Source: Nanobdellota archaeon (GTDB lineage: Archaea > Nanobdellota > Nanobdellia > Pacearchaeales > GW2011-AR1). From it: a stretch of 64,000 nucleotides of DNA. Of the stretch, positions 12,854 to 62,302 are shown piece after piece. Both the position numbers and the translations under genes were made by a program. The stretch spans positions 4,597-68,596 of the forward strand of contig JAKLDD010000002.1 of assembly GCA_022703705.1 (NCBI GenBank). The letters are read 5' to 3'. Each line of letters begins with the position of its first letter. Position 1 is the first letter of the stretch. The notes beneath the pieces are model-generated. The model was not told where the DNA came from. It made no database searches and saw only the letters and a list, made by a program, of their open reading frames with translations.

Positions 12854-13279
12854 TTAAAAATTATTTTTCTTTTCTAGTTTATCTAATTTATCTTGAACAT
12901 GATTAAAAAGAGTTGTTGAAATAATTGGGGGGTGTTTTCCTTCAGAAATTTGCCCATCAAACCTAACTTTACCAACATAAACAAAATTTCTTAAAATTTT
13001 TTTTAATCCATTAACTGAAAAATTATGCTTTTCTGCAATTTTAGACAAGTTCATTTCTGGATTCAAAAACTCTTCAAAAATTTCTTCTACTTCTCTGTAG
13101 TTTTGCGCTAAAATCAATGTTTTTTCTTTAAAATCCCATTCATATCCGAAAGGGGATCTCGACATATGTTTTCCTTCAGAAAATTTTTTTAGCATTCCCT
13201 TTTTTTGAGATTTTCCTCGATCTTCCAATTCAGGTTTTAATTCTATTTCAAATTCGTGTCCACATTTAGGGCATTTCAT
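12854..13279 (-). CDS. Zn-ribbon plus serine-recombinase 'Recombinase' (DNA-binding) domain protein, lacking the catalytic resolvase domain
   Basis: N-terminal CPKCGHEF. SPFGYEW..LILAQNYREVEEIFEEFLNPEMNLSKIAEKHNFSVNGLKKILRNFVYVGKV matches the PFGY..EA..V..IF..SL..IA..LN...I..IL.N..Y.G pattern of PF07508. ATGA overlap with the xerA stop. Confidence 0.65.
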   Translation of the reverse strand: MKCPKCGHEFEIELKPELEDRGKSQKKGMLKKFSEGKHMSRSPFGYEWDFKEKTLILAQNYREVEEIFEEFLNPEMNLSKIAEKHNFSVNGLKKILRNFVYVGKVRFDGQISEGKHPPIISTTLFNHVQDKLDKLEKKNNF

Positions 13280-14109
13280 TTCATTAATTCATCTATAGGG
13301 GATTTTATCTTCTTTAATTCTTCTGTTGATATATGAGTATAAATTTGTGTTGTTGAAAGATCTGCATGCCCAAGCAATTCTTGTATTTTTCTTATATCCG
13401 TCCCGTTTTCTAAAAGATGGGTGGCAAAACTATGCCTCAAAGTATGGCAATGAATTTCCTTGTTTATTCCTGCTCTTTTTGCTGCTTTTGAAACAATTTT
13501 TTGCAAATTTCTCTCTGAAAGTTTTCCTTTTATTCCAGTAAATAAATATATTTCTTTTTTTTCTTTCTGCTTTTCTACTTGTTTTTTTAAATCTTCTAAT
13601 AAAAAATCTGGAATGTTAAAAATTCTATCTTTTTTTCCTTTTCCTTGAAGAATTTTTCCTGTTTTTTCATTAAAGTCCAAGTCCCCAATTTTTAAATTGA
13701 TTAATTCGGATACCCTAAACCCACAGGCATACATTAAAGAAACCATAATTTTTGATTTTTTCGTGTCCAATACTTCAAATAATTTTTTTGCTTCTTCTTT
13801 TGTTAAAACCGTGGGCAATCTCTTTTCTCTTTTTGGACGTTTAATTCCCAGGGTAATGTCTTTTTTTAATATACCTAAAAAAGAATATTTTAAAGCTGAA
13901 AGAAAAATAATTATGGATGAGGAAGCTTTATCAGAAAGATTCTCTGAAATATATAATTTTACATCATCTGATTCTATTTTCTCTGGATTTTTTTTTATAA
14001 ATTCAAGAAATTTTTTATTTGAATCCAAATAATTTCTCAGTGTATATAATGAATTTTTTGAAATTTTCAGTTCAACCTCTAATTTTTTTAAAAAATCTTC
14101 TGGAGTCAT
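13276..14109 (-). CDS. xerA: tyrosine recombinase XerA/XerC/XerD family
   Basis: 277 aa. ACGFRVSEL (Arg I), HTLRHSFATHLL (H-x-x-R), LGHADLSTTQIYTH (catalytic Tyr), N-terminal SAM-like core-binding domain. Confidence 0.9.
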   Translation of the reverse strand: MTPEDFLKKLEVELKISKNSLYTLRNYLDSNKKFLEFIKKNPEKIESDDVKLYISENLSDKASSSIIIFLSALKYSFLGILKKDITLGIKRPKREKRLPTVLTKEEAKKLFEVLDTKKSKIMVSLMYACGFRVSELINLKIGDLDFNEKTGKILQGKGKKDRIFNIPDFLLEDLKKQVEKQKEKKEIYLFTGIKGKLSERNLQKIVSKAAKRAGINKEIHCHTLRHSFATHLLENGTDIRKIQELLGHADLSTTQIYTHISTEELKKIKSPIDELMK

Positions 14110-14965: not shown

Positions 14966-15460
14966 TTAGAAGGATTTTGGAGGTTTTGATAGTATTTCCT
15001 TAGTAATCTTAACAATTTGTTTTAATATTTTCGGATTTGTGGCCTTTTTTAAAAACTGTTCATCTTCTGTTGAAAATTGTCTTGCACTTAGGTTAGCTTT
15101 GTTATTTTTTGTTTGATATTCTTTGAAAGCCGGTGAATCTTTATGAACTAAAAGATACTCAAAAACATCCCCGAGGTTTTTCTGGTAGTCTTTAAACTGT
15201 TCTTCACTAATAAGAGCATATTCATGAAATTCATTTAAAGAGAGATTTCCATGTCTTTTTAAAAGAGGGAACCATACAGAAAGTTTCCCATCTTCTACAT
15301 AGTGAATTCCTAATGAATTTTCTTCAGGAATCTGAAATAATAAATGTGGGGCCATCATGTTTTGAAAATACTTTCCCTTGAAATTTTCAATTAATAAATC
15401 ATAAAGAGTGTGCTCATACGGGATTAGTTTTGGTTCTAAACCTTTTTTCATTTTATTCAT
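14966..15460 (-). CDS. hypothetical protein (164 aa)
   Basis: ORF with no recognised motif. Repeat R1 lies ~100 nt upstream. Confidence 0.55.
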   Translation of the reverse strand: MNKMKKGLEPKLIPYEHTLYDLLIENFKGKYFQNMMAPHLLFQIPEENSLGIHYVEDGKLSVWFPLLKRHGNLSLNEFHEYALISEEQFKDYQKNLGDVFEYLLVHKDSPAFKEYQTKNNKANLSARQFSTEDEQFLKKATNPKILKQIVKITKEILSKPPKSF

Positions 15461-15559: not shown

Positions 15560-15594
15560 TTCACCTGCCTTTTTGCACTTAGGTTAGGTAAGTT
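15560..15594. repeat. repeat R1 copy a (ttcacctgcc-ttttgcacttaggttaggtaagtt)
   Basis: The 24-nt core is identical to 16074-16097. It lies ~100 nt upstream of the start of gene 14966..15460. Confidence 0.8.
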
Positions 15595-16063: not shown

Positions 16064-16097
16064 TTCACCAGCATTTTGCACTTAGGTTAGGTAAGTT
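16064..16097. repeat. repeat R1 copy b
   Basis: ttcaccagca-ttttgcacttaggttaggtaagtt, at the same offset from the start of gene 15639..15959. Confidence 0.8.
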
Positions 16098-16122
16098 ATT
16101 TGTAATTAGTTTAATTTTAATG

Positions 16123-16150
16123 CGTTGGATGTGTTGGATGTGTTGGAATG
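16123..16150. repeat. repeat R2: three tandem 9-mers (gttggatgt gttggatgt gttggaatg)
   Basis: The 20-mer tgtgttggatgtgttggaat (16130-16149) recurs exactly at 17800-17819, inside a CDS. Confidence 0.8.
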
Positions 16151-16179
16151 CCAGTTAAAAATGTATAATTTACCTGTTT

Positions 16180-16311
16180 AAACAGCTGTTTGTTATATTT
16201 TATCGACGGAATAATAAAAATTAAAAAAACAAAAATTAATTAAAATTTAAGGTGTTTAAATGGCTGTTTAAATTTTAAACAGCTGTTTGCCACTGTTTAA
16301 ACAGGCTGTTT
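16180..16311. repeat. iteron cluster: 12-bp palindrome AAACAGCTGTTT (2 perfect + 2 degenerate copies)
   Basis: Perfect copies at 16180-16191 and 16277-16288. Variants aaatggctgttt at 16258-16269 and aaacaggctgttt at 16299-16311. Confidence 0.8.
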
Positions 16312-16470
16312 GTAGTTATTTTTTTACTATAAACATGGTTTTTTAACAATTTTTTAGCTTATTTTTTATTTATTTTTGTACCCTTTTTTTGTTTTTAAAT
16401 CAAAGAAAAATTTCGTTTTTCCCGATGAAAAAAACAAAACATTTTTAAACCGGTTTTTCTAATAGATATT

Positions 16471-17103
16471 ATGTTTAGATGGTTTTCTAAAAAAAAGGAT
16501 AAAAAAGAGCTTGAAGATATAAAAGAAGAAACAAAAAAAGGTTTTGATTTTGTAAAAAAAGATATTGCAACAGTAAGTGGATGGATTAAACACCTAGATT
16601 CTGAAAAAAAAATACAAGAAAAAGATATATTATCCATTAAAGAAGATTTGACGACGGTTAAAGAAGAATTAGAAGGATTAAAAAATGTTTTATCTATTAT
16701 GAATGATCTTAAACCCAAACAGCTGTTTAAAACAAACAAACAGCTGTTTAATAAACAAACAGCTGTTTATGCTGTCCAAACAGGTGTCCAAACAGGTGTC
16801 CAAACACCAAATTTAGGACAATTTTCTGTAACAGAAAGAGCGATTCTATGGGTGTTATTAAACACAGATATGAAACTAGGTTATGATGATCTTTCTACTA
16901 TGCTAGGAAAAGAAAAGAGCACAATAAGAGGTCAAATAAACTCCATAAAAGCAAAAAGTGAGGGTATAATAGAGGAAATTATTGAGACAAATGGCAAAAA
17001 AAGAGTGTTTATACCTGAAGAAATTAAAGAAAAACTACTAAAAAAGTCAAAAGTAAGGGTTGGACAGTCAAAAAACACCAAAAAAGTCAAAAGTGAGGAT
17101 TAG
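16471..17103 (+). CDS. coiled-coil / low-complexity linker / C-terminal wHTH DNA-binding protein (210 aa)
   Basis: N-terminal KKGFDFVKKDI..coiled coil, linker KQLFKTNKQLFNKQTAVYAVQTGVQTGVQT, and wHTH SVTERAILWVLLNTDMKLGYDDLSTMLGKEKSTIRGQINSIK. Paralog of 17328..18032. Confidence 0.65.
   Translation: MFRWFSKKKDKKELEDIKEETKKGFDFVKKDIATVSGWIKHLDSEKKIQEKDILSIKEDLTTVKEELEGLKNVLSIMNDLKPKQLFKTNKQLFNKQTAVYAVQTGVQTGVQTPNLGQFSVTERAILWVLLNTDMKLGYDDLSTMLGKEKSTIRGQINSIKAKSEGIIEEIIETNGKKRVFIPEEIKEKLLKKSKVRVGQSKNTKKVKSED
16717..16806. repeat. three more perfect AAACAGCTGTTT palindromes plus AAACAGGTGTCC x2, inside the CDS
   Basis: Perfect copies at 16717-16728, 16738-16749 and 16757-16768; ccaaacaggtgt x2 at 16776-16800. 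Confidence 0.8.
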
Positions 17104-17166
17104 TAACCCTTAAAATATTAAAAAAATAAGAAAAAATTAGATAAAAAAGTCAAAAGTGAGAGTTAA
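17041..17166. repeat. three copies of aaaaagtcaaaagt[ag]ag[ga]g spanning the CDS 3' end and downstream
   Basis: Copies start at 17041, 17081 and 17144. The second contains the stop codon, and the third repeats the C-terminal coding module after the stop. Confidence 0.7.
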
Positions 17167-17210
17167 TAGATTCAAAAAATAAGAAAATAAAAAGAAAAAA
17201 TCGGGGGGAA

Positions 17211-17246
17211 AGAAAAAAGGGAGATAAAAGAAAAAAGGGAGATAAA
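17211..17246. repeat. 18-bp tandem duplication (gaaaaaagggagataaaa x2) in a ~220-bp almost pure-purine tract
   Basis: Read directly. The tract 17104-17327 is A/G on the plus strand and T/C on the minus strand. Confidence 0.75.
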
Positions 17247-17327
17247 AGAAAAAAATAAAGAGAAAAAAACACATAAGAAACCCAAAAGGGAGGGAAAAAA
17301 GTTATTCGGTAAGCAAGATAACTATAA

Positions 17328-18032
17328 TTAAAGCTCCCTTAACTGTAAAATTGTGCTTAAAGAAGCAATTTTCTTAAAGTTTGATGAAATAATCAATTGA
17401 ATATTTTTATTATTGATTTTAATTTTCTCGACGGGAATTCCTTTTTTAATTAACCTTCCAACATAATCCCTAATAGAGCTTTCAGTTAATTTTAGCTTTT
17501 GAGATAAATTCCTATAATCTGCATATCCTTCTTCTTCACAAGATTGATACAGTGCAGAAAAAACAGTCATTTCTTGATCTGTAAGTCGTTTAAATTTTAA
17601 ACGTATCTCTTTTTTTAGATTATCGAGAGAATCTAAAATTTTTACAGCATCTATTATGGGGCTTTCTTTTTCTTTATTATTGGTATTGTACGAACCTTTA
17701 TCTGTCTGTTGGTTTGTCTGTTGGTTTGTCTGTTTGTCTGTTGGAACCCCTACATTTCCAGTGGAAATACCTAAATTTTCATCCCTAAGGAGCCCAAAAT
17801 GTGTTGGATGTGTTGGAATTTGTGGTGAGGATGTTGAATTTTCTGATTTATGTGTTGGATCTTCTTTAAAATTTTCTTCTTTCTGCTTTATTGAAATTTT
17901 CTTTATTAATTCACATAATTCAATTAAACTTTGCCTATTTTCTTTTAATCCTTCTTTTAAAGAATCAACCTCTTTTCTCAAAATATCCATATCTTGTTTT
18001 ACCTTTGAAAATGCCTCTTTTATTTGTTCCAT
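17328..18032 (-). CDS. coiled-coil / low-complexity linker / C-terminal wHTH DNA-binding protein (234 aa), paralog of 16471..17103
   Basis: IKEAFSKVKQDMDILRKEVDSLKEGLKEN aligns with KKGFDFVKKDI..VKEELEGLKN. wHTH LTDQEMTVFSALYQSCEEEGYADYRNLSQKLKLTESSIRDYVGRLIKKG. The linker carries PTHPTH and TDKQTNQQTNQQTD repeats. Confidence 0.65.
   Translation of the reverse strand: MEQIKEAFSKVKQDMDILRKEVDSLKEGLKENRQSLIELCELIKKISIKQKEENFKEDPTHKSENSTSSPQIPTHPTHFGLLRDENLGISTGNVGVPTDKQTNQQTNQQTDKGSYNTNNKEKESPIIDAVKILDSLDNLKKEIRLKFKRLTDQEMTVFSALYQSCEEEGYADYRNLSQKLKLTESSIRDYVGRLIKKGIPVEKIKINNKNIQLIISSNFKKIASLSTILQLREL
17685..17695 (-). other. isolated Xer half-site GTTCGTACAAT inside the CDS linker
   Basis: 11-mer identical to 14125-14135, in the same orientation as the right arm of the dif-like site. 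The flanking would-be left arm is degenerate (5/11). Confidence 0.5.
17704..17744. repeat. tandem gtctgttggttt repeats (minus strand AAACCAACAGAC), related to the AAACAG half-iteron
   Basis: Two 12-mers plus two shorter units, encoding the QTNQQTNQQTD linker. Confidence 0.7.
17800..17819. repeat. repeat R2 second locus (exact 20-mer)
   Basis: tgtgttggatgtgttggaat is identical to 16130-16149 and encodes PTHPTH on the minus strand. Confidence 0.8.
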
Positions 18033-18096
18033 CTTTTTTTAAATAATATCTCCTATAAAAAGATTGAGATATTTTAAAATAATATTTGAGAAATAT

Positions 18097-19230: not shown

Positions 19231-19316
19231 ATTGAAAATAAAAGTAATCAATTTATAAACTTTTCTGTAAAAATATATAGAGATTTGAATGTATAAAACA
19301 ATCAAAATTTAAATCC

Positions 19317-19341
19317 CACACCCTTTTGTTTCTTATGGAAA
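19317..19341 (-). promoter_or_regulatory. ORB-like box 1 (inverted): TTCCATAAGAAACAAAAGGGTGTG
   Basis: Dyad TTCCAnnnGAAAC plus a G/T-rich tail, comparable to archaeal ORB/mini-ORB elements (TTCCAGTGGAAAC type). Confidence 0.6.
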
Positions 19342-19394
19342 TATTTATAAATCAAAATGAAAAATTTTATTTTATTTATTTATTTATAAAAATT

Positions 19395-19426
19395 TATATT
19401 ATATATTATATATTATATATTATATT
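19395..19426. repeat. (TATATTA)n heptamer repeat, ~4.5 copies
   Basis: tt doublets recur every 7 nt at 19399, 19406, 19413 and 19420. Confidence 0.8.
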
Positions 19427-19437
19427 TTACTATTTTT

Positions 19438-19461
19438 AATAATAATAATAATAATAATAAT
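19438..19461. repeat. (AAT)8 microsatellite
   Basis: Read directly from the sequence. Confidence 0.9.
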
Positions 19462-19667
19462 AAAAGAATTAAAAGAATCAAAAACACTATAAAAGTAATA
19501 TAACAATAACATAACAAGAAGACATAATTAATAACATTCTATCAAAAACATAAAAATTATAATAATTATAATAAAAGAAATAATTAAAATTTTGGTAATA
19601 AATTAAAAATAACAGCTAAAATCTCAAAAACTTAAAAATAGCACTTAAAATTCAAAAAAACTAATCA

Positions 19668-19690
19668 TTCCATTAGAAACGTAGGTGTTT
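19668..19690 (+). promoter_or_regulatory. ORB-like box 2: TTCCATTAGAAACGTAGGTGTTT
   Basis: Same dyad and G/T tail, in the opposite orientation to box 1 across the AT-rich region. Confidence 0.6.
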
Positions 19691-19764
19691 CTCTTAATTA
19701 GTGGTTATAATTCTTTATATAAGAAATACATTTTTTTCATCGATAATTTAATTAATTTTAAATT

Positions 19765-19788
19765 TTCCACAGGAAATAAACGTGTGAG
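19765..19788 (+). promoter_or_regulatory. ORB-like box 3: TTCCACAGGAAATAAACGTGTGAG
   Basis: Same dyad, 30 nt upstream of the cdc6 ATG. GAGGT SD-like element at 19806-19810. Confidence 0.55.
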
Positions 19789-19817
19789 ATAATGAAATTA
19801 AAACGCGAGGTTAAAAG

Positions 19818-21029
19818 ATGAAAATAGATATTGAAAAAATTTTTGATACTTTTGATAAAAATGGAATTTTTAAAAACAAATCTTTATTACAATCAAATTA
19901 TACTCCAAATGAAATTCCCCATAGAGAAGAAGAAATAAAGCAGATTGCTTCTATCTTGGCTCCAGTATTGAGGGGAGAAAAAACAAGTAATTTATTTCTT
20001 TACGGGAAAACAGGAACAGGAAAAACCCTTTCTGTCCAATTTGTTCAAGAAGAATTAAATAAGCGAGTAAAAAAAGATTCAAATTTTAAATTAAAAATAG
20101 AATATTTAAATTGTAAATTAAAAAAGGTGTCTGATACAGAATATAGAATTTTAGCAGAATTAATTAAAAAAATGGGGGGGGAAGTTCCTCAAACAGGGCT
20201 TCCAACTCAAGCAGTATATAACAAATTTATAGAAACAATTGATTCTGAAAGGCAAGTAATAGTACTTATTTTAGATGAAATTGATCAAACAGTAAGGAAA
20301 ATTTCAAGCGATTTTTTGTATAATTTAATAAGATTAAATTCAGAACTTTCAAAATCCAAGCTTTGTATAGTTGGAATTAGCAATAATTTAACCTTTTTAG
20401 ATGAAATAGACCCCCGAGTAAGAAGTTCCCTTTCAGAAGAGGAAATTGTTTTTCACCCGTATGATGCTCTTCAATTGCAGGATATCTTAAATAAAAGGGC
20501 AAGAATGGCATTTAAAGAGGGAGTTATTCAGGAAGGGGTTGTTTCTAAATGTGCCGCATTTGCTGCAAGAGAGCACGGAGATGCAAGAAGAGCCCTAGAT
20601 TTACTTAGAATAGCTGGAGAGTTAGCAGAAAGAGACAATTCAGGTAAAATTTTAATAAAACATATAGATGAAGCAAATAATAAAATAGAAAAAGATAAGA
20701 TTTTAGATGTAATTCAATCAGAACCCAAACAATTTCAGTTAGTTTTAAAGGCAATTATTTATTTATCTGAAACTCAAAAAAACGAACCCATTTTTACAGG
20801 AGATGTTTATAATGTATATCAGGATTTTTGTTTAAGGCATAAACTAGAAGTATTAACCCAAAGGAGAGTGGGGGATATAATTCAAGAGTTTGATATGCAT
20901 GGAATAATTAATATAAAAGTTATTTCTAAGGGCCGGGGAGGGAGAATGAGAGAAATTAAATTAGCAATTCCAAAAGAGATTACAAAAAAAGCAAATGAAA
21001 TTGTTGAACACTCCTTAAATTATTTATAA
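19818..21029 (+). CDS. cdc6: Orc1/Cdc6 replication initiator
   Basis: IPHREEEIKQI.., Walker A YGKTGTGKT, Walker B LILDEID, sensor GISNN, GDARRALDLLR, and a C-terminal winged helix. Confidence 0.93.
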   Translation: MKIDIEKIFDTFDKNGIFKNKSLLQSNYTPNEIPHREEEIKQIASILAPVLRGEKTSNLFLYGKTGTGKTLSVQFVQEELNKRVKKDSNFKLKIEYLNCKLKKVSDTEYRILAELIKKMGGEVPQTGLPTQAVYNKFIETIDSERQVIVLILDEIDQTVRKISSDFLYNLIRLNSELSKSKLCIVGISNNLTFLDEIDPRVRSSLSEEEIVFHPYDALQLQDILNKRARMAFKEGVIQEGVVSKCAAFAAREHGDARRALDLLRIAGELAERDNSGKILIKHIDEANNKIEKDKILDVIQSEPKQFQLVLKAIIYLSETQKNEPIFTGDVYNVYQDFCLRHKLEVLTQRRVGDIIQEFDMHGIINIKVISKGRGGRMREIKLAIPKEITKKANEIVEHSLNYL

Positions 21030-21041
21030 TCTTTATTTAAA

Positions 21042-22664
21042 ATGGACACCAAAAAAATTTTGAAGTTTTGTTTAGAGAACGGATTATTGCTGGACAAAGA
21101 TGCTCTTGAATTATTTAGTGAAACTTGTAATACAGAATCCGTAAAACTAATCATTGAAAAAATAAAATCTTCAACAAAGCAAAAAATTATAACAAAAAAT
21201 ATTTTTTATGAAAATAAAGGGGAAATAATCAAATTTTTTTCAGATTTGCCAAAAGAAACCCAAAAAGAATTAGAAAGTTTAAAAATAAATCTGGGGCTAA
21301 GCATTGAAATTTCAAAGGAAAAAATCTCTTTAAATGAAAAAAAGCAAAATTACTCAGAGACAAAAAGCGATATAAAAATTCTTTCTCCTTTTCCCCCTGT
21401 TTCTTCTCAGGGGCATAAAATAGATGTGCAAGATTTTGTTAAATTTTTTAGAAATCGTTTTTTTGAAATGAAAAAAATTCTTCAGGGGCATTCTGAATTG
21501 GATAATCTCGTTTCTATAAATAAAATATTTGGAAATAGGCACGGAATTTCTATTATAGGGATGATTTGTAGTAAAAGTATTACAAAAAATAAAAATATGA
21601 TTTTTGAAGTTGAAGATTTTACCGGTAAAATAAAAATAATTGTGAGCAAAGAAAAGAAAGAATTGTATGAAAAGGCAGAAGAAATTTGTTTAGATTCTGT
21701 TTTGGGTTTTAAGGGTGCTGGAAATGGGGAGATTTTTTTTGCAAATGATATAATTTTTCCTGATGCAAACCTTGCAGAAAAGAAAAAGTCCCCGGAAGAA
21801 GAATATGCTTTATTTTTAGGGGATTTACATCTTGGAAGCAAGAGATTTTTCAAGCAGAGCTTTCTAAAATTTATAGATTATTTAAATGGCAATTTTCCAA
21901 ACACCCCCGAAGTTTACAAAATAAAGTACCTTTTTATAGTGGGCGATTTAGTTACTGGAATTGGAAATTATCCGAATCAAGAAGAAGATTTAGAGGTTGT
22001 AAATTTGGAAGAACAGTTTTCCTTGCTTGCCAATTTGCTTGGAAAAATAAGAAAAGATGTTAAAATAATTCTTTCGCCAGGAAATCACGATGGGGTACGA
22101 TTAATGGAACCGCAACCTCTTTTTGATGAAAAATATGCTTGGCCAATTTATAATCTGGAAAATGTAACAATAACTTCAAATCCTTGTTTTCTTAATTTTG
22201 GTTCTAAGGAAAATTTTGATGGGTTTAATGTCTTAACTTATCATGGATTTTCTTTTCAATACTATGCAAATTCTGTTCAAAAATTAATTCAAAAAAAAGC
22301 AATGAATTGTCCTGAAGAAATAATGAAATATGTTTTAAAACATAGGCATCTAGCCCCAACGCATGCCTCAACACAATACTTTCCTACTGAGGAAGATAAT
22401 TTATTAATAAAAGAAGTTCCAGATATTTTTGTATCTGCACACACTCACAAAAGCGGAGTTTCTGTTTATAATAATATTTTAATTATTTCAACTTCTTGCT
22501 GGGAAGCAATGACTCCTTACCAAGAAAAATTTGGAAATGAACCAGATCATTGCAAGGTTCCTATGCTTAATTTAAAAACTCGCGCTATCAAAATCTTAGA
22601 TTTTGAAGAAAATGAAAGAGGAGTAGATAAAAATTTGGAGATAAATTTAAATGAAAATAAATGA
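21042..22664 (+). CDS. DNA polymerase II (PolD) small subunit DP1
   Basis: OB-fold plus calcineurin-like phosphoesterase motifs: LFLGDLHLGS, FIVGDLV, SPGNHD, SAHTH. Confidence 0.9.
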   Translation: MDTKKILKFCLENGLLLDKDALELFSETCNTESVKLIIEKIKSSTKQKIITKNIFYENKGEIIKFFSDLPKETQKELESLKINLGLSIEISKEKISLNEKKQNYSETKSDIKILSPFPPVSSQGHKIDVQDFVKFFRNRFFEMKKILQGHSELDNLVSINKIFGNRHGISIIGMICSKSITKNKNMIFEVEDFTGKIKIIVSKEKKELYEKAEEICLDSVLGFKGAGNGEIFFANDIIFPDANLAEKKKSPEEEYALFLGDLHLGSKRFFKQSFLKFIDYLNGNFPNTPEVYKIKYLFIVGDLVTGIGNYPNQEEDLEVVNLEEQFSLLANLLGKIRKDVKIILSPGNHDGVRLMEPQPLFDEKYAWPIYNLENVTITSNPCFLNFGSKENFDGFNVLTYHGFSFQYYANSVQKLIQKKAMNCPEEIMKYVLKHRHLAPTHASTQYFPTEEDNLLIKEVPDIFVSAHTHKSGVSVYNNILIISTSCWEAMTPYQEKFGNEPDHCKVPMLNLKTRAIKILDFEENERGVDKNLEINLNENK

Positions 22665-23619
22665 TAGAGTTTATGGAAATCAAGAGATAAATGAAGCAAT
22701 TCTTTTGGATTTAATTAATTCTAATTCAATTAAGAGATTAAAAGACATTTCTCAAATAGGGATGCCAGATGAATATCTTTCTTTCTCAGGATTTTCTAGA
22801 TATGAACATTCTTTGGGGGTTATGATTCTTTTAAAAAGATTGAGGGCTAATTTAGAAGAACAAGTTGCCGGGTTATTACATGATATTTCTCATACCCCCT
22901 TTTCCCATGTTATAGATTGGGTTATTGGGGATCCAACTAAAGAAGATTATCAAGATAGTATTTTTAGGGAATTTTTAGAAAAATCAGATTCATTTGATAT
23001 TCTTAAAAAGCATAAATTAAACACAGAACTTATTTCAGATTTAAATAATTTTAAACTTTTGGAAAGAGAATCTCCGAAGTTGTGCGCGGATAGACTTGAC
23101 TATTCTTTGAGGCAAATTAGAATGGAAAAAGGCAAAGAATTGGCTAACAAAATTTTTGGAGATTTATGTGTTTATGAGAATCAAATTGCATTTAATAGTT
23201 TAGAAGTTGCAAGATTGTTCGGAAAAGAGTATATGAATCTTCAAACTCTTAGGTGGGCGGGAGATGAAATGAGAAGTAAATATTATATTTTATCTGAAAC
23301 ATTGAAAGAAGCATTGAATAAAAGTTTAATCGAATTTAATCAATTTTATGGGACAGAAAAACCCATTTTGAAAATTTTAAATAATTCAAACAATGAACTT
23401 ATTTTATCTAACTTAAACTTACTGAAAAAAGGTTTCTCTGTCATCGAAGATGAAAATGGAATAGAATTAAAAAAGAAGTTTAGATATGTTGATCCAGAAA
23501 TTAGAATGAATGGGGGGATTGTTTGTTTAAGCGATATTTGTGAGGATTATAAAAAACTTATTAATTATGAAAAAGAAAAAAATTTGGAGGTTAAGAAAAT
23601 AAAGATAATTCCTAATTAA
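22651..23619 (+). CDS. HD-domain phosphohydrolase (COG1078/SAMHD1-like family, short form)
   Basis: INDRVYGNQEI...IKRLKDISQIG, SRYEHSLGVMIL, LLHDISHTPFSH, CADRLDYSLR. 14-nt overlap with DP1 and a 1-nt gap to DP2. Confidence 0.75.
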   Translation: MKINDRVYGNQEINEAILLDLINSNSIKRLKDISQIGMPDEYLSFSGFSRYEHSLGVMILLKRLRANLEEQVAGLLHDISHTPFSHVIDWVIGDPTKEDYQDSIFREFLEKSDSFDILKKHKLNTELISDLNNFKLLERESPKLCADRLDYSLRQIRMEKGKELANKIFGDLCVYENQIAFNSLEVARLFGKEYMNLQTLRWAGDEMRSKYYILSETLKEALNKSLIEFNQFYGTEKPILKILNNSNNELILSNLNLLKKGFSVIEDENGIELKKKFRYVDPEIRMNGGIVCLSDICEDYKKLINYEKEKNLEVKKIKIIPN

Positions 23620-23620
23620 A

Positions 23621-26600
23621 ATGAACACCCAAGAATATTTTGAAAATCTTAAGAAGGAAATCGATAAAATATATTTAATTGCAGAAAAAGCTAGAGCAAA
23701 AGGATATGACCCTGCAAATGAGGTGGAAATTCCCTTAGCAATGAGTATGGCAGAAAAGGTTGTTGGTTTAATTTCTACAATATATCCTCAAATGAAAAAT
23801 TCTGGAATTGCAGAAAGGATTCTTGAGCTTGAAAAAGAATATGGGAAATTGGATACAACAATTGTATTTAAGATTGCAGAAGAAGTTGCAAAACAAAAAT
23901 TTTGCAAATTTAAGGATCTTCTCGAATCAATGGATGCTGGAATAAGAGTTGGCTTTGCTTATGCTACCTTGGGGGTAGTTTCAAGCCCAATAGAAGGATT
24001 CACTGGATTAAAAATAAGAAAAACGAGAAACAATCAAGAATATATTGAAGCAAGTTTTTCAGGCCCAATTAGAAGTGCAGGAACAACTGCAAGTTGTATT
24101 GTTTTAATTTTAATTGACTATCTAAGGGAGATATTTGGATTTGCTAAATATGATCCCACAGAAGAAGAAATCAAAAGAATGTATTCTGAAATGGAACATT
24201 TTCATGAAAGGGTTGCAAATTTGCAGTATATGCCTACAGAAAAAGAGGCAAATTTTTTAGCAAAAAATCTTCCAATTCAAATTGCAGGAGATGCTTCTGA
24301 AAAAATTGAAGTTCCAAATTATAAAAATTTGGAAAGAGTGGATACAAATTATTTGAGGAGTGGTTTTTGTTTAATTATCGGGGAAGGGCTTGCCCAAAAA
24401 GCAGCAAAAGGATTTAGGTTGTTAAATATTTCAAAGAAAAATGGGATAAAATCAACGGGGTTTGATTTTTTAGAAGAATATATAAAAATTCATGAAAAAA
24501 GGGCAAAAGGAAAAAAAGATGAAACTCCTGTTTATATGAAAGATTTGGTTGCCGGAAGACCTGTTTTTGGGCATCCTGCAAAATCTGGGGGTTTTAGGTT
24601 TAGATATGGAAGAGGAAGGGTTTCAGGATTTAGTGCAACTTCTTTGCATCCTGCAACAATGGCTATAACTGACGACTTTATTGCAATTGGAACACAATTA
24701 AAACTTGAAAAACCAACTAAAGGTTGTGTAGCTACTGTTTGTGATTCAATAGAAGGACCGATAGTCAAATTGTTTAATGGGAGTGTAAAAAAGTTAAATT
24801 CTTTAGAAGAAGCTAAATTAATTTATCCAGATGTAGATGAAATTATTTATTTAGGAGACATTTTGTTTCCATTTAGTGATGTTTTAAACAGAAATGCGCA
24901 GCTTATAAAACCGGGGTATGTTGAAGAGTGGTGGAAATTGGATTTGATGGAAAAAAACAATCTGGAAAAAATAGATTGTTTTAATATTTCTCTAGACAAA
25001 GCAATTGAATTAAGTGAGAATTATTCTATTCCATTACACCCAAAATATATTTTTTATTGGACAGAATTATCTAAAGAATATTTCTTGGATTTAATTGATT
25101 GGTTAATTGTTTCAAAATATGACAAAAAAATAATTTTTCCATATAATAAAACTGAAAGAGAAAAATTTAAGCTGGGAAAACGTGCCTTGGAGTTGCTGGG
25201 CATAGAACATCAAGTAACTTTAGAAAATGTTGTTTTGAACGAAATTACCAGCAAGGCTCTTCTTCTTAATCTTGGTATTAATATTCCCCATGAAGAATTT
25301 TTATTTAAAGAGCTAATTTTTAAGGAAAAGTATTTGTTAGACAAAAATGTTTTAGAAATTATTAATTCTGTTTCTAATTTTAAAATAAAAGATAAGGCGG
25401 GAGAGTTTATTGGAGCTAGAATGGGCAGGCCAGAAAAAGCAAAATTAAGAAAATTAATTGGGGGTCCAAATGTTTTATTTCCTGTTGGAAAAGAGGGGGG
25501 AAGATTGAGGAGTTTTCAAGCAGCTTGTGGAGAAGGAGAAGTTTTTGGAAGCTTTCCTATTTATTATTGTGAAAAGTGCAACCAGGAAACAATCTATCCT
25601 ATTTGTGAATCTTGTGAAAATAAATGTAAAAAAATGTATTATTTTCCTGAATTAAAAGAAAAAGCATTTGTTAAAATAAAAGAGGGGATTGAGAAAGGAG
25701 GAGTTCCTTACATGAATAAGAGGATAAATATTCAGCATTATTTTGAAAGTGCAATAAAAAAATTAGGTTATTCTAAAGAGCAAATACCCCCATTAATTAA
25801 AGGAGTTAGAGGAACTTCTTCAGAAAATCATTCCATAGAAAATTTTGCAAAAGGGATGATAAGAGCAAAATATAATTTACAAGTAAATAAAGATGGAACA
25901 ATAAGATTTGATGCAACAGAACTTCCCATAACATCTTTTAAGCCAAAAGAAATTTTTGTGGGTGTTGAAAAATTGAGGGAATTGGGTTACGATAAAGATA
26001 TTTTTGGTAATGAATTAATAAATGAAGACCAAATCCTAGAGCTTTTACCCCATGATGTTTTGCTTCCAATTTCTTCAGACTCTCTTGATGAAAAAGCAGA
26101 TGATATCTTTTTTAAGGTTTCAAAATTTGTTGATGAAGAATTAGAAAAATTTTATGGATTAGGAAAGTTTTATGATTTAAAAGAAAAACAAGATTTGGTT
26201 GGGCAAATTGGGGTTTGCATGGCCCCCCATAATTGTGCAGGGGTAGTTTGTAGATTTATTGGATTCTCAAACACTCAAGGCCTTTTTGCAAGTCCGTATA
26301 TGCACGCAGCAATAAGGAGGGATTGTGATGGGGATGAAGCAGCAGTTATGTTGCTGGGTGATGTATTAATTAATTTTTCAAGAGAATTTTTACCAAGTCA
26401 CCGGGGGGGAACCCAAGATGCCCCGCTTGTTTTAAATGCAAAAATAGATGCTGGTGAAGTTGATGATCAAATTTTAGATTTTGAATTTTTAAACGAATAC
26501 CCTATTGAATTGTACAGGTTTTCAGAGGAAAAAAGGCATTCCTCAGAAGTAAAATTAAATACTGTAAAAGAAATTCTAAAAAAAGGGGAAGATCCTTTTA

Positions 26601-27073
26601 AAGGAGTTGGATTTACTCACTCTACTAACAATTTTAATGAGGGGGTTTTGTGTTCTTCATATAAAAGACTTTTAACTATGCAAGATAAAGTAGGGCATCA
26701 AATGGAATTAGTAGAAAAACTTCGTTCTGTTGACACTGCAGATACTGCACGCCTTATTATTGATAGACATTTTATCAGGGATATTAGAGGTAATCTTAGA
26801 AAATTTTCAATGCAAGAATTTAGGTGTGTTGCTTGTAATGAAATTGTAAGAAGGCCCCCTCTTGAAGGGGTTTGCCCGAAGTGTCGCGGAAAATTAATTT
26901 TTACAATTCATGAAGGGGGAATAAAAAAATATCTTGATTCGGCATTGGACTTGGCAAAAAAATATAATCTTTCTTCTTATTTGCAGCAAAATCTTGAACT
27001 TGTTAAAAGATACATAGATGCTGTTTTTGGTAAAGAATTGGAAAAGCAAAAAGCTTTAGCAGATTATTTTTAA
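23621..27073 (+). CDS. DNA polymerase II (PolD) large subunit DP2
   Basis: 1150 aa. Motifs GRPVFGHPAKSGGFRFRYGR, ARMGRPEKA, IRRDCDGDEAA, and Zn fingers CEKCN..CESC and CVACN..CPKC. Confidence 0.93.
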   Translation: MNTQEYFENLKKEIDKIYLIAEKARAKGYDPANEVEIPLAMSMAEKVVGLISTIYPQMKNSGIAERILELEKEYGKLDTTIVFKIAEEVAKQKFCKFKDLLESMDAGIRVGFAYATLGVVSSPIEGFTGLKIRKTRNNQEYIEASFSGPIRSAGTTASCIVLILIDYLREIFGFAKYDPTEEEIKRMYSEMEHFHERVANLQYMPTEKEANFLAKNLPIQIAGDASEKIEVPNYKNLERVDTNYLRSGFCLIIGEGLAQKAAKGFRLLNISKKNGIKSTGFDFLEEYIKIHEKRAKGKKDETPVYMKDLVAGRPVFGHPAKSGGFRFRYGRGRVSGFSATSLHPATMAITDDFIAIGTQLKLEKPTKGCVATVCDSIEGPIVKLFNGSVKKLNSLEEAKLIYPDVDEIIYLGDILFPFSDVLNRNAQLIKPGYVEEWWKLDLMEKNNLEKIDCFNISLDKAIELSENYSIPLHPKYIFYWTELSKEYFLDLIDWLIVSKYDKKIIFPYNKTEREKFKLGKRALELLGIEHQVTLENVVLNEITSKALLLNLGINIPHEEFLFKELIFKEKYLLDKNVLEIINSVSNFKIKDKAGEFIGARMGRPEKAKLRKLIGGPNVLFPVGKEGGRLRSFQAACGEGEVFGSFPIYYCEKCNQETIYPICESCENKCKKMYYFPELKEKAFVKIKEGIEKGGVPYMNKRINIQHYFESAIKKLGYSKEQIPPLIKGVRGTSSENHSIENFAKGMIRAKYNLQVNKDGTIRFDATELPITSFKPKEIFVGVEKLRELGYDKDIFGNELINEDQILELLPHDVLLPISSDSLDEKADDIFFKVSKFVDEELEKFYGLGKFYDLKEKQDLVGQIGVCMAPHNCAGVVCRFIGFSNTQGLFASPYMHAAIRRDCDGDEAAVMLLGDVLINFSREFLPSHRGGTQDAPLVLNAKIDAGEVDDQILDFEFLNEYPIELYRFSEEKRHSSEVKLNTVKEILKKGEDPFKGVGFTHSTNNFNEGVLCSSYKRLLTMQDKVGHQMELVEKLRSVDTADTARLIIDRHFIRDIRGNLRKFSMQEFRCVACNEIVRRPPLEGVCPKCRGKLIFTIHEGGIKKYLDSALDLAKKYNLSSYLQQNLELVKRYIDAVFGKELEKQKALADYF

Positions 27074-62209: not shown

Positions 62210-62302
62210 AGCCCCATAGTACAGTGGTCAAGTATACGGCCCTTTGGTGTTATTAAGTAATGGAGAAAGGCCGGGACCTCGGTTCGAATCCGAGTGGGGC
62301 TA
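62210..62302 (+). tRNA. tRNA-Gln (anticodon TTG at 62244-62246) with a 20-nt intron at the canonical 37/38 position (62248-62267)
   Basis: Hand-folded: acceptor AGCCCCA/TGGGGCT (A1-U72, typical of archaeal tRNA-Gln), D-arm GTAC AGTGGTCAA GTAT, anticodon stem CGGCC/GGCCG interrupted by tgttattaagtaatggagaa, T-arm CTCGG TTCGAAT CCGAG. Confidence 0.85.

Follow-up and report, generated by a model that had tools for sequence, protein, structure and literature searches.

The DNA that encodes the linkers of two convergent genes beside the chromosomal origin of a DPANN archaeon appears to be code and protein-binding site at once, a reading that is strongly supported by the sequences of both genes and of their relatives. 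Codon choice in the linkers tracks the DNA motif rather than the codon bias of the genome, and the DNA encoding each linker appears to be selected as DNA. The QT-repeat peptides of the linkers would be largely a by-product of DNA motifs, and one that unstructured linkers can tolerate. The best model, to which we assign a probability of about 0.6, has Orc1/Cdc6 and the two encoded MarR-like winged helix-turn-helix (wHTH) proteins as candidate binders of these sites.

The window, i.e. the whole 64-kb stretch of DNA that was analysed, stems from a DPANN archaeon with a GC content of ~28%, listed at NCBI as Candidatus Pacearchaeota. Gene 1 points rightward and is followed by gene 2, a wHTH gene, an unknown gene and a PRC-barrel gene, all pointing leftward, then by oriC and the rightward cdc6 and DP1 genes (Table 1). 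The comparison set comprises 80 orthologous loci from Woese-, Pace- and Nanoarchaeota, in all of which the two genes converge and lie in synteny with cdc6 as they do here; the pair is ~2-3 kb off oriC/cdc6 in 80 of the 80 genomes. The spacer between the two genes varies across loci from ~90 nt (L002) to 225 nt. No description of this arrangement was found in the literature on ORBs in DPANN or Woesearchaeota.

Table 1. Features of the origin-proximal region, in coordinates of the window
Feature	Position	Strand	Details
R2 array, non-coding	16120..16148	.	ATGCGTTGG ATGTGTTGG ATGTGTTGG AA, three 9-bp units
AAACAG/CTGTTT half-site array, non-coding	16172..16312	.	encloses TTTTATCGACGGAAT at 16198-16212
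Degenerate ORB-like dyad TTTTTCCCGATGAAAAAAAC, then TATA-like CATTTTTAAAC	16415..16450	+	~30 nt before gene 1 ATG
Gene 1, 210 aa	16471..17103	+	intact ORF, convergent with gene 2
Gene 1 linker DNA	16717..16809	+	five AAACAG[C/G]TGT(T/C) copies: 16717, 16738, 16757, 16778, 16790
Gene 2, 234 aa	17328..18032	-	intact ORF
TTTCTCGACGGGAATT, resembles upstream TTTTATCGACGGAAT	17424..17439	-	codons of GIPVEK, wHTH wing
Gene 2 linker-coding DNA, apparently constrained at DNA level	17673..17870	-	third-position top-base frequency, codon choice
CCAACAGAC / (GACA)n-like repeat, GTCTGTTGGTTT units	17704..17743	-	3' of gene 2 ORB; encodes DKQTNQQTNQQTD
ORB-like element in gene 2	17740..17768	-	coding strand ATTTCCACTGGAAAT GTA GGGG TTCCAAC; encodes ISTGNVGVPT
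TCCAACACA units (PTH codons)	17800..17860	-	exact 20-mer 17800-17819 and third unit 17850-17860
Canonical oriC	19306..19817		three ORBs flanking very AT-rich stretch
oriC ORBs	19315-19342 (-), 19664-19690 (+), 19763-19788 (+)		
orc1/cdc6 initiator gene	19818..21029	+	NCBIfam NF001625/TIGR02928, Pfam Cdc6_C
PolD DP1, HD protein, PolD DP2	downstream of orc1/cdc6, in that order		DP1/DP2 models

The two proteins have one common architecture. AlphaFold predicts for the gene 1 product a long N-terminal helix (aa 3-80), a disordered linker (aa 85-113) and a C-terminal MarR/Lrs14-like wHTH domain (aa 120-190). The gene 2 product is predicted to consist of an N-terminal helix (aa 2-53), a disordered linker (aa 55-120) and then a helix and a MarR-like wHTH domain (aa 125-233). 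In both cases the disordered linker coincides with the constrained segment. Foldseek finds the winged helix-turn-helix fold in both C-terminal domains, with MepR, MarR and AbfR2 matches for gene 1 and MarR-family matches for gene 2; the best of them (MarR, MepR, YusO and AbfR2) have E-values of 2e-4 to 7e-4 and TM scores (target) of 0.45-0.5, and no curated MarR-family profile reaches its cut-off. No Pfam, PHROGs or NCBIfam model scores above cut-off for either protein, and profile searches of the PDB return only marginal HTH matches. Below the Pfam cut-offs, gene 2 resembles HTH_24, HTH_36 (18.9 bits, cut-off 25) and DnaD_N (18.9, cut-off 27), and it has a weak match to a phage replication-initiation PHROG (phrog_1032, E 0.0095). 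Such sub-threshold matches are the only ones of gene 2 to O/G38P/DnaD-type replisome organisers, and gene 1 has none whatsoever. Homologues are numerous, >2400 in DPANN for gene 1 and >2390 for gene 2.

The first-pass annotation had taken the two genes for paralogs whose products align at both ends. The common architecture bears this out in part, as does the N-terminal match, which is real and covers residues of the K.[GA]F..VK.D motif that do not vary in either family. When the profiles of the N-terminal helices are compared by hhalign, the probability is 94% and the E-value 1.7e-7, although coiled coils inflate such scores. The match between the wHTH domains, on the other hand, is weak (hhalign E 6e-5 over 26 columns; for the trimmed C-termini, E 0.002 and a probability of 13%), so these domains are barely alignable. 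BLASTP of the whole proteins gives an E-value of 0.37.

The palindrome AAACAGCTGTTT, with no more than one mismatch, occurs five times in the 64-kb window: at 16180 and 16277 in non-coding DNA and at 16717, 16738 and 16757 in gene 1. Shuffled sequences contain 0.4 on average, and five were reached in none of 100 shuffles. The linker of gene 1 contains two further copies, of the form AAACAGGTGTCC, at 16778 and 16790, and a sixth, degenerate one, CAAACACC. All five copies had been noticed at first pass, with correct translations. The repeats are phased and iteron-like, with a spacing of 19-21 bp, and across loci they keep constant offsets (~237/258/277/298/310). The reading frame is not the same for all of them. 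Copies 1 and 2 are in frame 0 (AAA CAG CTG TTT, translated KQLF), whereas copies 3 to 5 are one base off, in frame +1 (C AAA CAG CTG TT, translated QTAV or QTGV). The first copy is encoded via KPKQLF in 27 loci (frame 0) and via KTN[RS][VL]F in 23 loci (frame 2). In VQT[G/A]VQT a single residue varies, and its position is that of the degenerate base at the center of the palindrome.

Over 77 loci the density of AAACAG[CG]TGTTT is 2.71 per kb in the 450 nt upstream of gene 1 and 1.77 per kb in gene 1, compared to 0.02 elsewhere, an enrichment of about 100-fold in both places. This enrichment and the shuffles exclude chance or low complexity as the source of the repeats. The codons of gene 1 residues 83-113 depart strongly from those outside: Thr is ACA in 93% vs 54%, Gly is GGT in 88% vs 34%, Ala is GCT in 94% vs 36% and Leu is CTG in 65% vs 5%. 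Third positions in the linker are conserved at 0.87-0.93. Gln is encoded by CAG at Q84 in 29 of 30 and at Q91 in 45 of 46 sequences, and by CAA in ~100% at Q103, Q107 and Q111.

The first-pass annotation had offered, as an alternative to dual use, that repeat expansions drive rapid evolution of the linkers. This does not hold. No segment of the gene 1 protein is better conserved than its linker, KQ.FKT..Q.F.KQT.VY.VQTGVQTGVQTP, and the synonymous sites of both linkers are nearly frozen; thus the linkers are not fast-evolving. Copy number is near-constant, with one QT unit fewer in only three loci. The repeat block is likewise among the best-conserved parts of gene 2, where the sequence ISTGN.GVPTD[KR]QT..QT..QT is nearly invariant among homologues and only the stretch of about aa 50-70 is rich in indels.

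In gene 2 the third-codon-position top-base frequency is 0.83-0.99 in the linker-coding DNA vs 0.55-0.70 in the remainder of gene 2. Rare codons of the linker are fixed in 70-77 of 77 sequences: TCC in 77 of 77, GGG in 74 of 76, GAC in 74 of 74 and CAG in 73 of 76. Within this stretch lies a complete ORB-like sequence, TTTCCAnnGGAAAT-n3-GGGG, which agrees with the three ORBs of the neighboring oriC and is a new observation. Its dyad is a perfect 7-1-7 palindrome at 17754-17768, ATTTCCA(G/C)TGGAAAT, which fits the ORB core TTCCA-n-GGAAA(T/C) with 0 mismatches. The G-rich string, which in an ORB follows the dyad on its 3' side after a few bases and makes the element polar, is present as well, GGAAAT-n3-GGGG compared to GAAAT-n3/4-GG(T/G)G in the oriC ORBs of the same genomes. 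The consensus is TTTCCAta.GAAAT.aagGtGTg in oriC and TTTCCAcaGGAAAT.aaGGGGTT in gene 2, and Pyrococcus ORB oligonucleotides share the core ATTTCCACTGGA with the ORBs described here (PMC1904270). The element is found in gene 2 of ~60 of 60 loci, with 62 matches of which 59 are on the coding strand. In the same 60 loci the oriC intergenic regions contain 139 matches and the regions upstream of gene 1 contain 7, as do the remaining 618 kb; ORBs thus cluster near the origin and cdc6 and are not scattered. The synonymous sites of the gene 2 element are fixed. The dyad is the sole clear palindrome of gene 2, and no 'Xer half-site', which had been proposed there, was identified.

The DNA around the ORB-like element is also repetitive. 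The QT-repeat block recognized at first pass consists of the GTCTGTTGGTTT units that follow the element, and in most relatives it reads GACAGACAGACAGACAGAC, translated DRQTDRQTD. The TCCAACA(G/C)A / (GACA)n units of this block recur upstream of gene 1, where a TCCAACA-type unit is found in only ~40% of loci. The 20-mer TGTGTTGGATGTGTTGGAAT, which had likewise been seen both in the PTH codons and upstream, occurs exactly at 16130 and 17800 and nowhere else in the window, with 0 occurrences expected by chance. The similarity around it reaches 52 nt at 73% identity (16129-16180 vs 17799-17850). Across loci, the TCCAACACA-type motif class is enriched 30-300-fold in gene 2 and 15-120-fold upstream of gene 1, and the unit exists in genome-specific variants (TCCAACACA / TCCAGCACA / TTCGACACA) common to both regions. 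This co-occurrence of variants is confounded by phylogeny, and gene conversion between the copies could be behind it instead of one protein that binds both regions.

The array upstream of gene 1 contains half-sites at 16174, 16180, 16186, 16264, 16277, 16283, 16293, 16299 and 16306, and further degenerate ones. The upstream regions of 78 related loci contain CTGTTTAAA in 70, AAACAGCCT/AGGCTGTTT in 63, AAACAGCTG in 44 and TTATCGACG in 33. The exact 12-mer is missing upstream in 22 of 77 loci, and at least two half-sites are present in all 77 (median 6 per region). The sharing of repeats between the coding linkers and the non-coding array persists in the 80 orthologous loci and is not lost in the orthologs. 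Together with the near-frozen synonymous sites, the motif-led codons in two frames and the embedded ORB matching the neighboring origin, it bears out the proposal of dual-use DNA made at first pass. That annotation had recorded neither the ORB nor its setting beside the origin, nor the use of two reading frames.

The conservation of the linkers might also be sought in the protein. The QT repeats would then be short linear motifs on which purifying selection is strong; their codons would have been unified by concerted evolution, through recent slippage or gene conversion from unit to unit, and the upstream copies would be relics of duplicated gene fragments. The peptides are indeed nearly invariant, period-4 xQTx repeats are found in both proteins, and the 52-nt similarity suggests a duplication in this lineage. 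Nevertheless, this explanation is distinctly improbable, given that Gln codons are opposite by position (CAG at Q84 and Q91, CAA at Q103-111) and that the motif is retained in two frames and via different peptides. Furthermore, the gene 2 ORB, which is not repeated, is also frozen synonymously and matches non-coding oriC ORBs, and the upstream arrays are kept in 55-77 of 77 loci while their surroundings are not conserved. The peptide motifs could have a function at the protein level too; selection on DNA and on protein is mutually compatible.

Another candidate for the source of the constraint is an overlapping RNA-level feature: a structured mRNA, a transcript from the opposite strand, or the antisense ORF at 17656..18042, which runs for 128 aa across the gene 2 linker. 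In the window, RNA of the gene 1 linker is predicted to fold well (-30.3 kcal/mol, z = -4.3), but RNAalifold of 38 orthologs gives only -3.3 kcal/mol and zero compensatory pairs, RNA of the gene 2 linker has less structure than its shuffles (z = +2.0), and no Rfam family is matched. A conserved RNA structure was rejected on these results. The same motifs are present in both orientations in the non-coding upstream DNA and in oriC, which suggests that selection acts on the DNA duplex and leaves an RNA-level origin of the constraint highly improbable.

In the preferred model, Orc1/Cdc6 would bind the ORB inside gene 2 and, in genomes having one, the ORB-like element that adjoins the promoter of gene 1. 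Dimeric wHTH proteins would bind the AAACAG/CTGTTT and TCCAACA arrays, both upstream of the genes and within them. The most economical candidates for this role are the gene 1 and gene 2 proteins themselves, possibly paired via their homologous N-terminal helices. The resulting origin-proximal nucleoprotein complex might make the expression of both genes depend on whether the initiator is bound, through autoregulation or a roadblock, or else might serve as an accessory origin or organizing site. Which protein binds which motif we infer purely from the sequence. The 6+6 bp palindrome is shorter than usual MarR operators, which counts against the model, as do the loci that have no TCCAACA-type unit or no exact 12-mer upstream of gene 1. 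A bolder version, which is possible though doubtful, regards the two proteins as lineage-specific origin-associated factors of Nanobdellota-type DPANN archaea that pair via their homologous N-terminal helices and, along with Orc1/Cdc6, bind sites in their own coding sequences and in the upstream array. The complex would then extend over 4 kb, beginning with the array ahead of gene 1 and reaching cdc6, and would act in origin, segregation or cell-cycle control, and the invariant QT-repeat peptides would be passengers dictated by the needs of the binding sites and not by protein function.

The array and the embedded repeats could instead be iterons that belong to a second origin or to a site resembling a centromere, with genes 1 and 2 encoding its dedicated binding proteins, much like WhiP at Sulfolobus oriC3 or like λ O and SPP1 G38P. 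The phased, iteron-like spacing of 19-21 bp, the strict linkage to oriC and the ORBs in gene 2 and, oppositely oriented in some genomes, upstream of gene 1 are consistent with such a site, as are the weak matches of gene 2 to HTH_36, DnaD_N and the phage PHROG. There are precedents in oriL, which lies inside gene 38 of SPP1 (PMC5737612), and, according to the accessible text of the paper, in Sulfolobus, where distinct origins have distinct initiators (PMC3607249). However, the canonical oriC with its three ORBs and AT-rich core is just ~1.5-2 kb off, and the genomes of the group are small (medians 739-1409 kbp, from a preprint). The family matches are sub-threshold. Moreover, no conserved AT-rich block is seen inside the two genes, and no conserved unwinding element is evident inside or between them, the spacer shrinking to ~90 nt in L002. 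A separate replicator is therefore unlikely. An inverted ORB pair around an AT-rich unwinding element is present at the cdc6-upstream oriC and not at the gene 2 element. The latter is single and unpaired, has no conserved AT-rich core next to it and thus gives no indication of a direct part in initiation.

MarR/Lrs14-type winged-helix regulators autoregulate via palindromic operators that precede their genes. In agreement with this scheme, both C-terminal domains have the corresponding fold, and palindromic repeats precede gene 1. The present proteins differ in failing the Pfam thresholds and in two additions, a long helix at the N-terminus and a linker that is predicted to be disordered; their operator-like sites are also in coding sequence, in two frames, and are accompanied by an ORB and a strict linkage to the origin. 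The λ O gene contains ori-λ. Both this gene and SPP1 gene 38 encode sequence-specific DNA-binding proteins and have arrays of short binding-site repeats translated between the domains, as do gene 1 with its five copies and gene 2 with its ORB and repeats, the sites here being putative. However, there is no detectable homology to O or G38P beyond the sub-threshold HTH_36 and DnaD_N matches, the domains come in the opposite order, with DNA binding assigned to the C-terminal one, no conserved AT-rich unwinding element is evident beside the repeats, and the locus is a cellular, chromosomal one beside a canonical Orc1-dependent origin.

Together with these phage origins, the closest precedent is the dp1 gene of Pyrococcus and Thermococcus, which contains an intragenic cluster of ORBs and mini-ORBs in a region bound by Cdc6/Orc1 in vivo (Matsunaga et al. 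2007, PMC1904270). In both cases ORB-type elements are located within an origin-proximal coding gene, are conserved across an order and belong to the same oriC-cdc6-DP1-DP2 neighborhood. Here, in contrast, the host is a wHTH gene on the opposite side of oriC, and DP1 has no conserved ORB. The element, a candidate binding site, is part of a linker that is predicted to be disordered and is frozen at its synonymous sites, and a second gene carries another, palindromic motif common to its own upstream region. WhiP, the winged-helix initiator that specifies Sulfolobus oriC3 in the accessible text of Samson et al. (2013, PMC3607249), is similarly a non-Orc1 winged-helix protein encoded beside its presumed DNA element in an origin context. 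It is a relative of Cdt1 without the coiled-coil-linker architecture, and that text reports no embedded sites.

The two genes provide a clean natural example of dual use in thousands of genomes, in which the linker motifs are probably imposed by selection on DNA, and they caution against reading conserved linear motifs as protein function. To our knowledge, replication and cell-cycle control in DPANN are essentially unstudied, because almost no DPANN have been cultured; the locus gives a first concrete lead on their origin-proximal DNA-protein architecture. It also bears on whether the archaeal initiator acts at an intragenic, origin-adjacent site, as the Pyrococcus dp1 cluster hinted in 2007.

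Several smaller features complete the description. The TATA-like CATTTTTAAAC is a putative promoter of gene 1; a scan for bacterial promoters and terminators is uninformative for archaeal DNA. Clearer ORB-like elements, with a GGGG(C/T)TTCGACA tail, are found at -50 to -138 in L004, L017, L024, L037, L063, L065 and L070. Rare codons are preferred at the GIPVEK site of gene 2 (CCC in 54 of 72, GTC in 47 of 52 and GAG in 37 of 49 sequences), and in several loci 11-mers of this site are common to the upstream region. A generic test for shared 11-mers proved too noisy, because control regions share AT-rich words too, and was dropped in favor of motif-specific censuses. Extra matches to the 12-mer occur at -2000 to -3200 in some loci; in L046 they are in or beside a serine-recombinase gene.

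Conserved dual-use DNA motifs sit in sequence coding for the disordered linkers of two convergent genes. Each gene encodes an N-terminal helix, a linker and a MarR-like wHTH domain, and the pair lies as the first-pass annotation had given it, in a window with a G+C content of ~28%. That annotation had described linkers built from the same DNA repeats as the non-coding DNA upstream of gene 1. The observation is confirmed overall and is extended here by a reading in two frames, an origin recognition box (ORB) and conservation across loci, that is, the versions of the gene pair in related DPANN genomes.

Features of the gene pair, its upstream region and the neighboring origin (window positions)
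Feature	Position	Strand	Description
TTTTGCACTTAGGTTAGGTAAGTT copies	15084-15095, 15571-15594, 16074-16097	+	
AAACAGCTGTTT copies, non-coding	16180, 16277		upstream of gene 1
gene 1	16471..17103	+	ORF, 210 aa
AAACAGCTGTTT copies, coding	16717, 16738, 16757		within gene 1
gene 2	17328..18032	-	ORF, 234 aa; convergent with gene 1
ORB-like element in gene 2	17740-17768	- (gene 2 coding strand)	perfect 7-1-7 dyad, then G-string
91-aa wHTH gene, then 137-aa unknown, then PRC-barrel gene	downstream of gene 2	-	
oriC intergenic region	19306-19817		512 nt, very AT-rich, three ORB-like elements
oriC ORB 1	19315-19342	-	
oriC ORB 2	19664-19690	+	
oriC ORB 3	19763-19788	+	
orc1/cdc6 - PolD small subunit (DP1) - HD-domain protein - PolD large subunit (DP2)	19818-27073		

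NCBI assigns the identical proteins to a Candidatus Pacearchaeota MAG. The relatives of each protein number >2390 at E <= 0.001, and those with a source name are labelled DPANN-type archaea; for the two proteins, many of the top-scoring relatives lie on contigs of the same length. Scanning one genome per GTDB species gave 254 loci, 80 of which were retained. In essentially all 80 loci gene 2 follows gene 1 in convergent orientation, the small wHTH gene is next in 76/80, the unknown gene and the PRC-barrel gene are each in order in 74/80, and cdc6 is in order in 59/80, many of the other loci stopping at a contig end. The oriC intergenic region is a canonical archaeal replication origin upstream of orc1/cdc6. 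The AT-rich core between its ORBs includes (TATAT)n and (AAT)n runs, and the layout of ORBs around such a core recurs in ~60 related loci. The downstream gene order and the ORB-bearing AT-rich region thus place the gene pair 1.3-3.3 kb from a canonical origin, and the linkage of the pair to the origin is strict. The order oriC-cdc6-DP1-DP2, the same in the window, was already known in Thermococcales (PMC1904270).

The palindrome AAACAGCTGTTT has five matches in the 64-kb window when one mismatch is allowed, and 5/5 are exact. Shuffled sequences predict 0.4, and 0/100 shuffles attain five; gene 1 has three of the copies and the upstream non-coding DNA two. The AAACAGGTGTCC pair claimed in gene 1 is also present. 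Copies 1-2 in gene 1 are in frame (AAA CAG CTG TTT, KQLF), and copies 3-5 are shifted by one base (CAA ACA G(C/G)T GT(T/C), QTAV/QTGV). This two-frame reading was overlooked in the first-pass annotation. Counted by region in 77 loci, the motif AAACAG[CG]TGTTT occurs 94 times in the 450 nt upstream of gene 1 (2.71/kb, 55 loci) and 85 times in gene 1 (1.77/kb, 62 loci), compared with one copy in gene 2 (0.02/kb, 1 locus) and 15 in the remaining ~700 kb (0.02/kb, 12 loci). The similarity between coding and non-coding copies, the loss of which in orthologues had been named as evidence against the proposal, persists in these loci because the motif is enriched both upstream of and inside gene 1. Within gene 1 the copies have fixed offsets across loci, at about 237, 258, 277, 298 and 310. 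The upstream arrays consist of AAACAG/CTGTTT half-sites arranged head-to-head (spacing 0 or 1) and tail-to-tail, with a median of 6 half-sites per region (range 2-12).

Gene 1 was aligned by codon across 81 orthologues to compare aa 83-113 with the rest of the gene. Codons in this segment track the DNA motif rather than genomic bias: Thr is ACA in 93% of cases within and 54% outside, Gly is GGT in 88% and 34%, Ala is GCT in 94% and 36%, Leu is CTG in 65% and 5%, and Val is GTA in 0% and 29%. Glutamine is encoded by CAG at Q84 (29/30 sequences) and Q91 (45/46), and by CAA at Q103 (80/81), Q107 (81/81) and Q111 (78/78); these opposite choices are set by the frame of the motif. The first copy is read as KPKQLF (frame 0) in 27 loci and as KTN[RS][VL]F in 23, where the motif, a 13-bp variant, starts one base earlier. 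The DNA motif therefore outlasts a change of peptide. In VQT[G/A]VQT[G/A]VQTP the sole variable residue is the one whose codon includes the palindrome's degenerate central base. Among 77 gene 2 orthologues, the block ISTGN.GVPTD[RK]QTD[RQ]QTD has fixed rare codons, namely TCC (77/77), GGA (72/72), GGG (74/76), GAC (74/74) and CAG (73/76). At third codon positions, conservation reaches peaks of 0.87-0.93 over the linker of gene 1 and 0.83-0.99 over that of gene 2, compared with about 0.55-0.79 in the two structured wHTH domains; the comparison stays within a single alignment and a single tree, and differs from a formal rate test. Conserved motif sharing and motif-driven codon choice in both linkers support dual-use DNA, which had been proposed beside repeat-driven linker evolution.

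RNA structure is not supported as the cause of the constraint. The gene 1 linker of the window folds well (z = -4.3), but the alignment of 38 orthologues gives -3.3 kcal/mol with zero compensatory pairs, and the linker of gene 2 has less structure than its shuffles. Nor can an antisense ORF over the gene 2 linker explain identical motifs in non-coding DNA. Such an ORF of 128 aa is found at 17656-18042 (+), opposite the linker and N-terminus, and is probably a by-product of composition.

Gene 2 shares other words with the non-coding DNA. Exact copies of the 20-mer TGTGTTGGATGTGTTGGAAT lie at 16130 in non-coding DNA and at 17800 in gene 2, where chance predicts zero, as the first reading of the sequence had it; the GTCTGTTGGTTT repeats claimed in gene 2 are likewise present. 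The unit of R2, the non-coding repeat array upstream of gene 1, is TCCAACACA when read along the coding strand of gene 2 (codons PTH) and is of one kind with the unit that follows the ORB G-string (TTCCAACAGAC). Across loci, gene 2 has R2-unit variants at 0.3-2.2 per kb, the gene 1 upstream region, where only ~40% of loci have an R2-type unit, at up to 0.7 per kb, and other sequence at 0.004-0.04 per kb. The variant tends to match between gene 2 and the gene 1 upstream region of each genome (CCAACACA, CCAGCACA, TCGACACA), a tendency confounded by phylogeny that could stem from gene conversion. A fourth shared word, TTTTATCGACGGAAT upstream (16198-16212), is similar to the gene 2 codons for GIPVEK (17424-17439), at which the rare codons CCC, GTC and GAG are preferred.

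Judging from its sequence, one of the dual-use motifs of gene 2 is an ORB-type element. The fixed DNA of the coding strand is ATTTCCA(C)TGGAAAT-GTA-GGGG-TTCCAACAGAC..., a dyad and G-string in the format of the three neighboring oriC ORBs. The T/I variation at residue 91 maps to the degenerate center of the dyad. In 60 loci that include cdc6, elements with a dyad of <=1 mismatch and a G-rich tail number 139 in the oriC intergenic region (4.6/kb), 62 in gene 2, 59 of them on the coding strand (1.4/kb), 7 in the 300 nt upstream of gene 1 (0.39/kb) and 7 in the remaining 618 kb (0.01/kb). The consensus is TTTCCAta.GAAAT.aagGtGTg in oriC and TTTCCAcaGGAAAT.aaGGGGTTcCaACA in gene 2, and the Pyrococcus ORB oligonucleotides of Matsunaga et al. 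include the same ATTTCCACTGGA core (PMC1904270). In several genomes another ORB-like element, its tail reading GGGG(C/T)TTCGACA, is found 50-138 nt upstream of gene 1; the version in the window, at about 16415-16434, is degenerate only. Purely protein-level selection with repeat homogenization does not explain these features, as it leaves unaccounted for the frame independence of the motif, the position-specific codons and the gene 2 ORB.

AlphaFold models based on family alignments predict that the DNA-constrained segments code for disordered protein. In gene 1 a helix (aa 3-80) is followed by a region of pLDDT <50 (aa 85-113) and the wHTH, and in gene 2 a helix (aa 2-53) by a region of pLDDT <50 (aa 55-120), a further helix and the wHTH. 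The predicted C-terminal domains match MarR/MepR/Lrs14-type regulators in Foldseek, suggesting a DNA-binding fold for both proteins; in curated profile searches no model attains its threshold for either. The proposed paralogy is supported in part. Whole-protein similarity is not significant (BLASTP E 0.37) and comparison of the full-alignment profiles found just 26 HTH columns, but the N-terminal helix profiles match with 94% probability (E 1.7e-7), and the K.[GA]F..VK.DI pairing is exact as proposed, its residues being invariant in both families. Distant paralogy is plausible.

Orc1/Cdc6 would bind the intragenic ORB of gene 2, and wHTH proteins, most simply the gene 1 and gene 2 products themselves, would occupy the half-site arrays that lie upstream of the genes and within them. 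Such binding might serve autoregulation, act as a roadblock or build an accessory complex near the origin. Alternatively, the locus may be a second replicator with the two products as its binding proteins, although a canonical origin lies <2 kb away and the embedded sites have no conserved unwinding element. A literature search found no published account of this arrangement in DPANN archaea. The nearest precedents among initiator genes with embedded DNA sites are SPP1 gene 38 and lambda O, the latter a phage initiator gene holding its own origin. SPP1 gene 38 likewise holds oriL (PMC5737612). For an ORB inside coding sequence near an origin, the nearest precedent is the Pyrococcus dp1 gene, with its Cdc6-bound ORB cluster (PMC1904270); in gene 2 such binding is predicted. 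Unlike that of Pyrococcus, DP1 of the window's group has no conserved ORB.

Across the 80 loci the element TTTTGCACTTAGGTTAGGTAAGTT (core GCACTTAGGTTA) is found 141 times, 141/141 on the + strand, always at -200 to -1750 relative to the start of gene 1 and nowhere else in the loci. The median spacing of the copies is 418 nt, and in 96/141 cases a minus-strand ORF starts <=300 nt to the left (middle half of distances 68-130 nt). Small genes lie between the window's copies, and two of them recur rarely, h164 in 4/80 loci and h106 in 1/80. The element resembles a conserved upstream element, or a cassette boundary, for an array of variable small genes that is bounded by gene 1 and a XerA-like recombinase. 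The stretch 12854-14109 has two recombinase-type genes: a 141-aa ORF, of which the only large-serine-recombinase part is the 'Recombinase' domain, without the catalytic domain, overlaps the start of a XerA-like tyrosine recombinase gene by 4 nt; upstream of the locus the former recurs in 43/80 and the latter in 28/80 loci. Three copies of a AAAAAAGTCAAAAGT(G/A)AGG unit span the gene 1 stop codon (17018-17164), two coding for KKSKVRV / KKVKSED and the third falling in the purine-rich DNA that separates the convergent pair. A 93-nt tRNA at 62210-62302 (53 bits in Rfam), for which ARAGORN gives a four-base 'anticodon', is probably an intron-containing archaeal tRNA.
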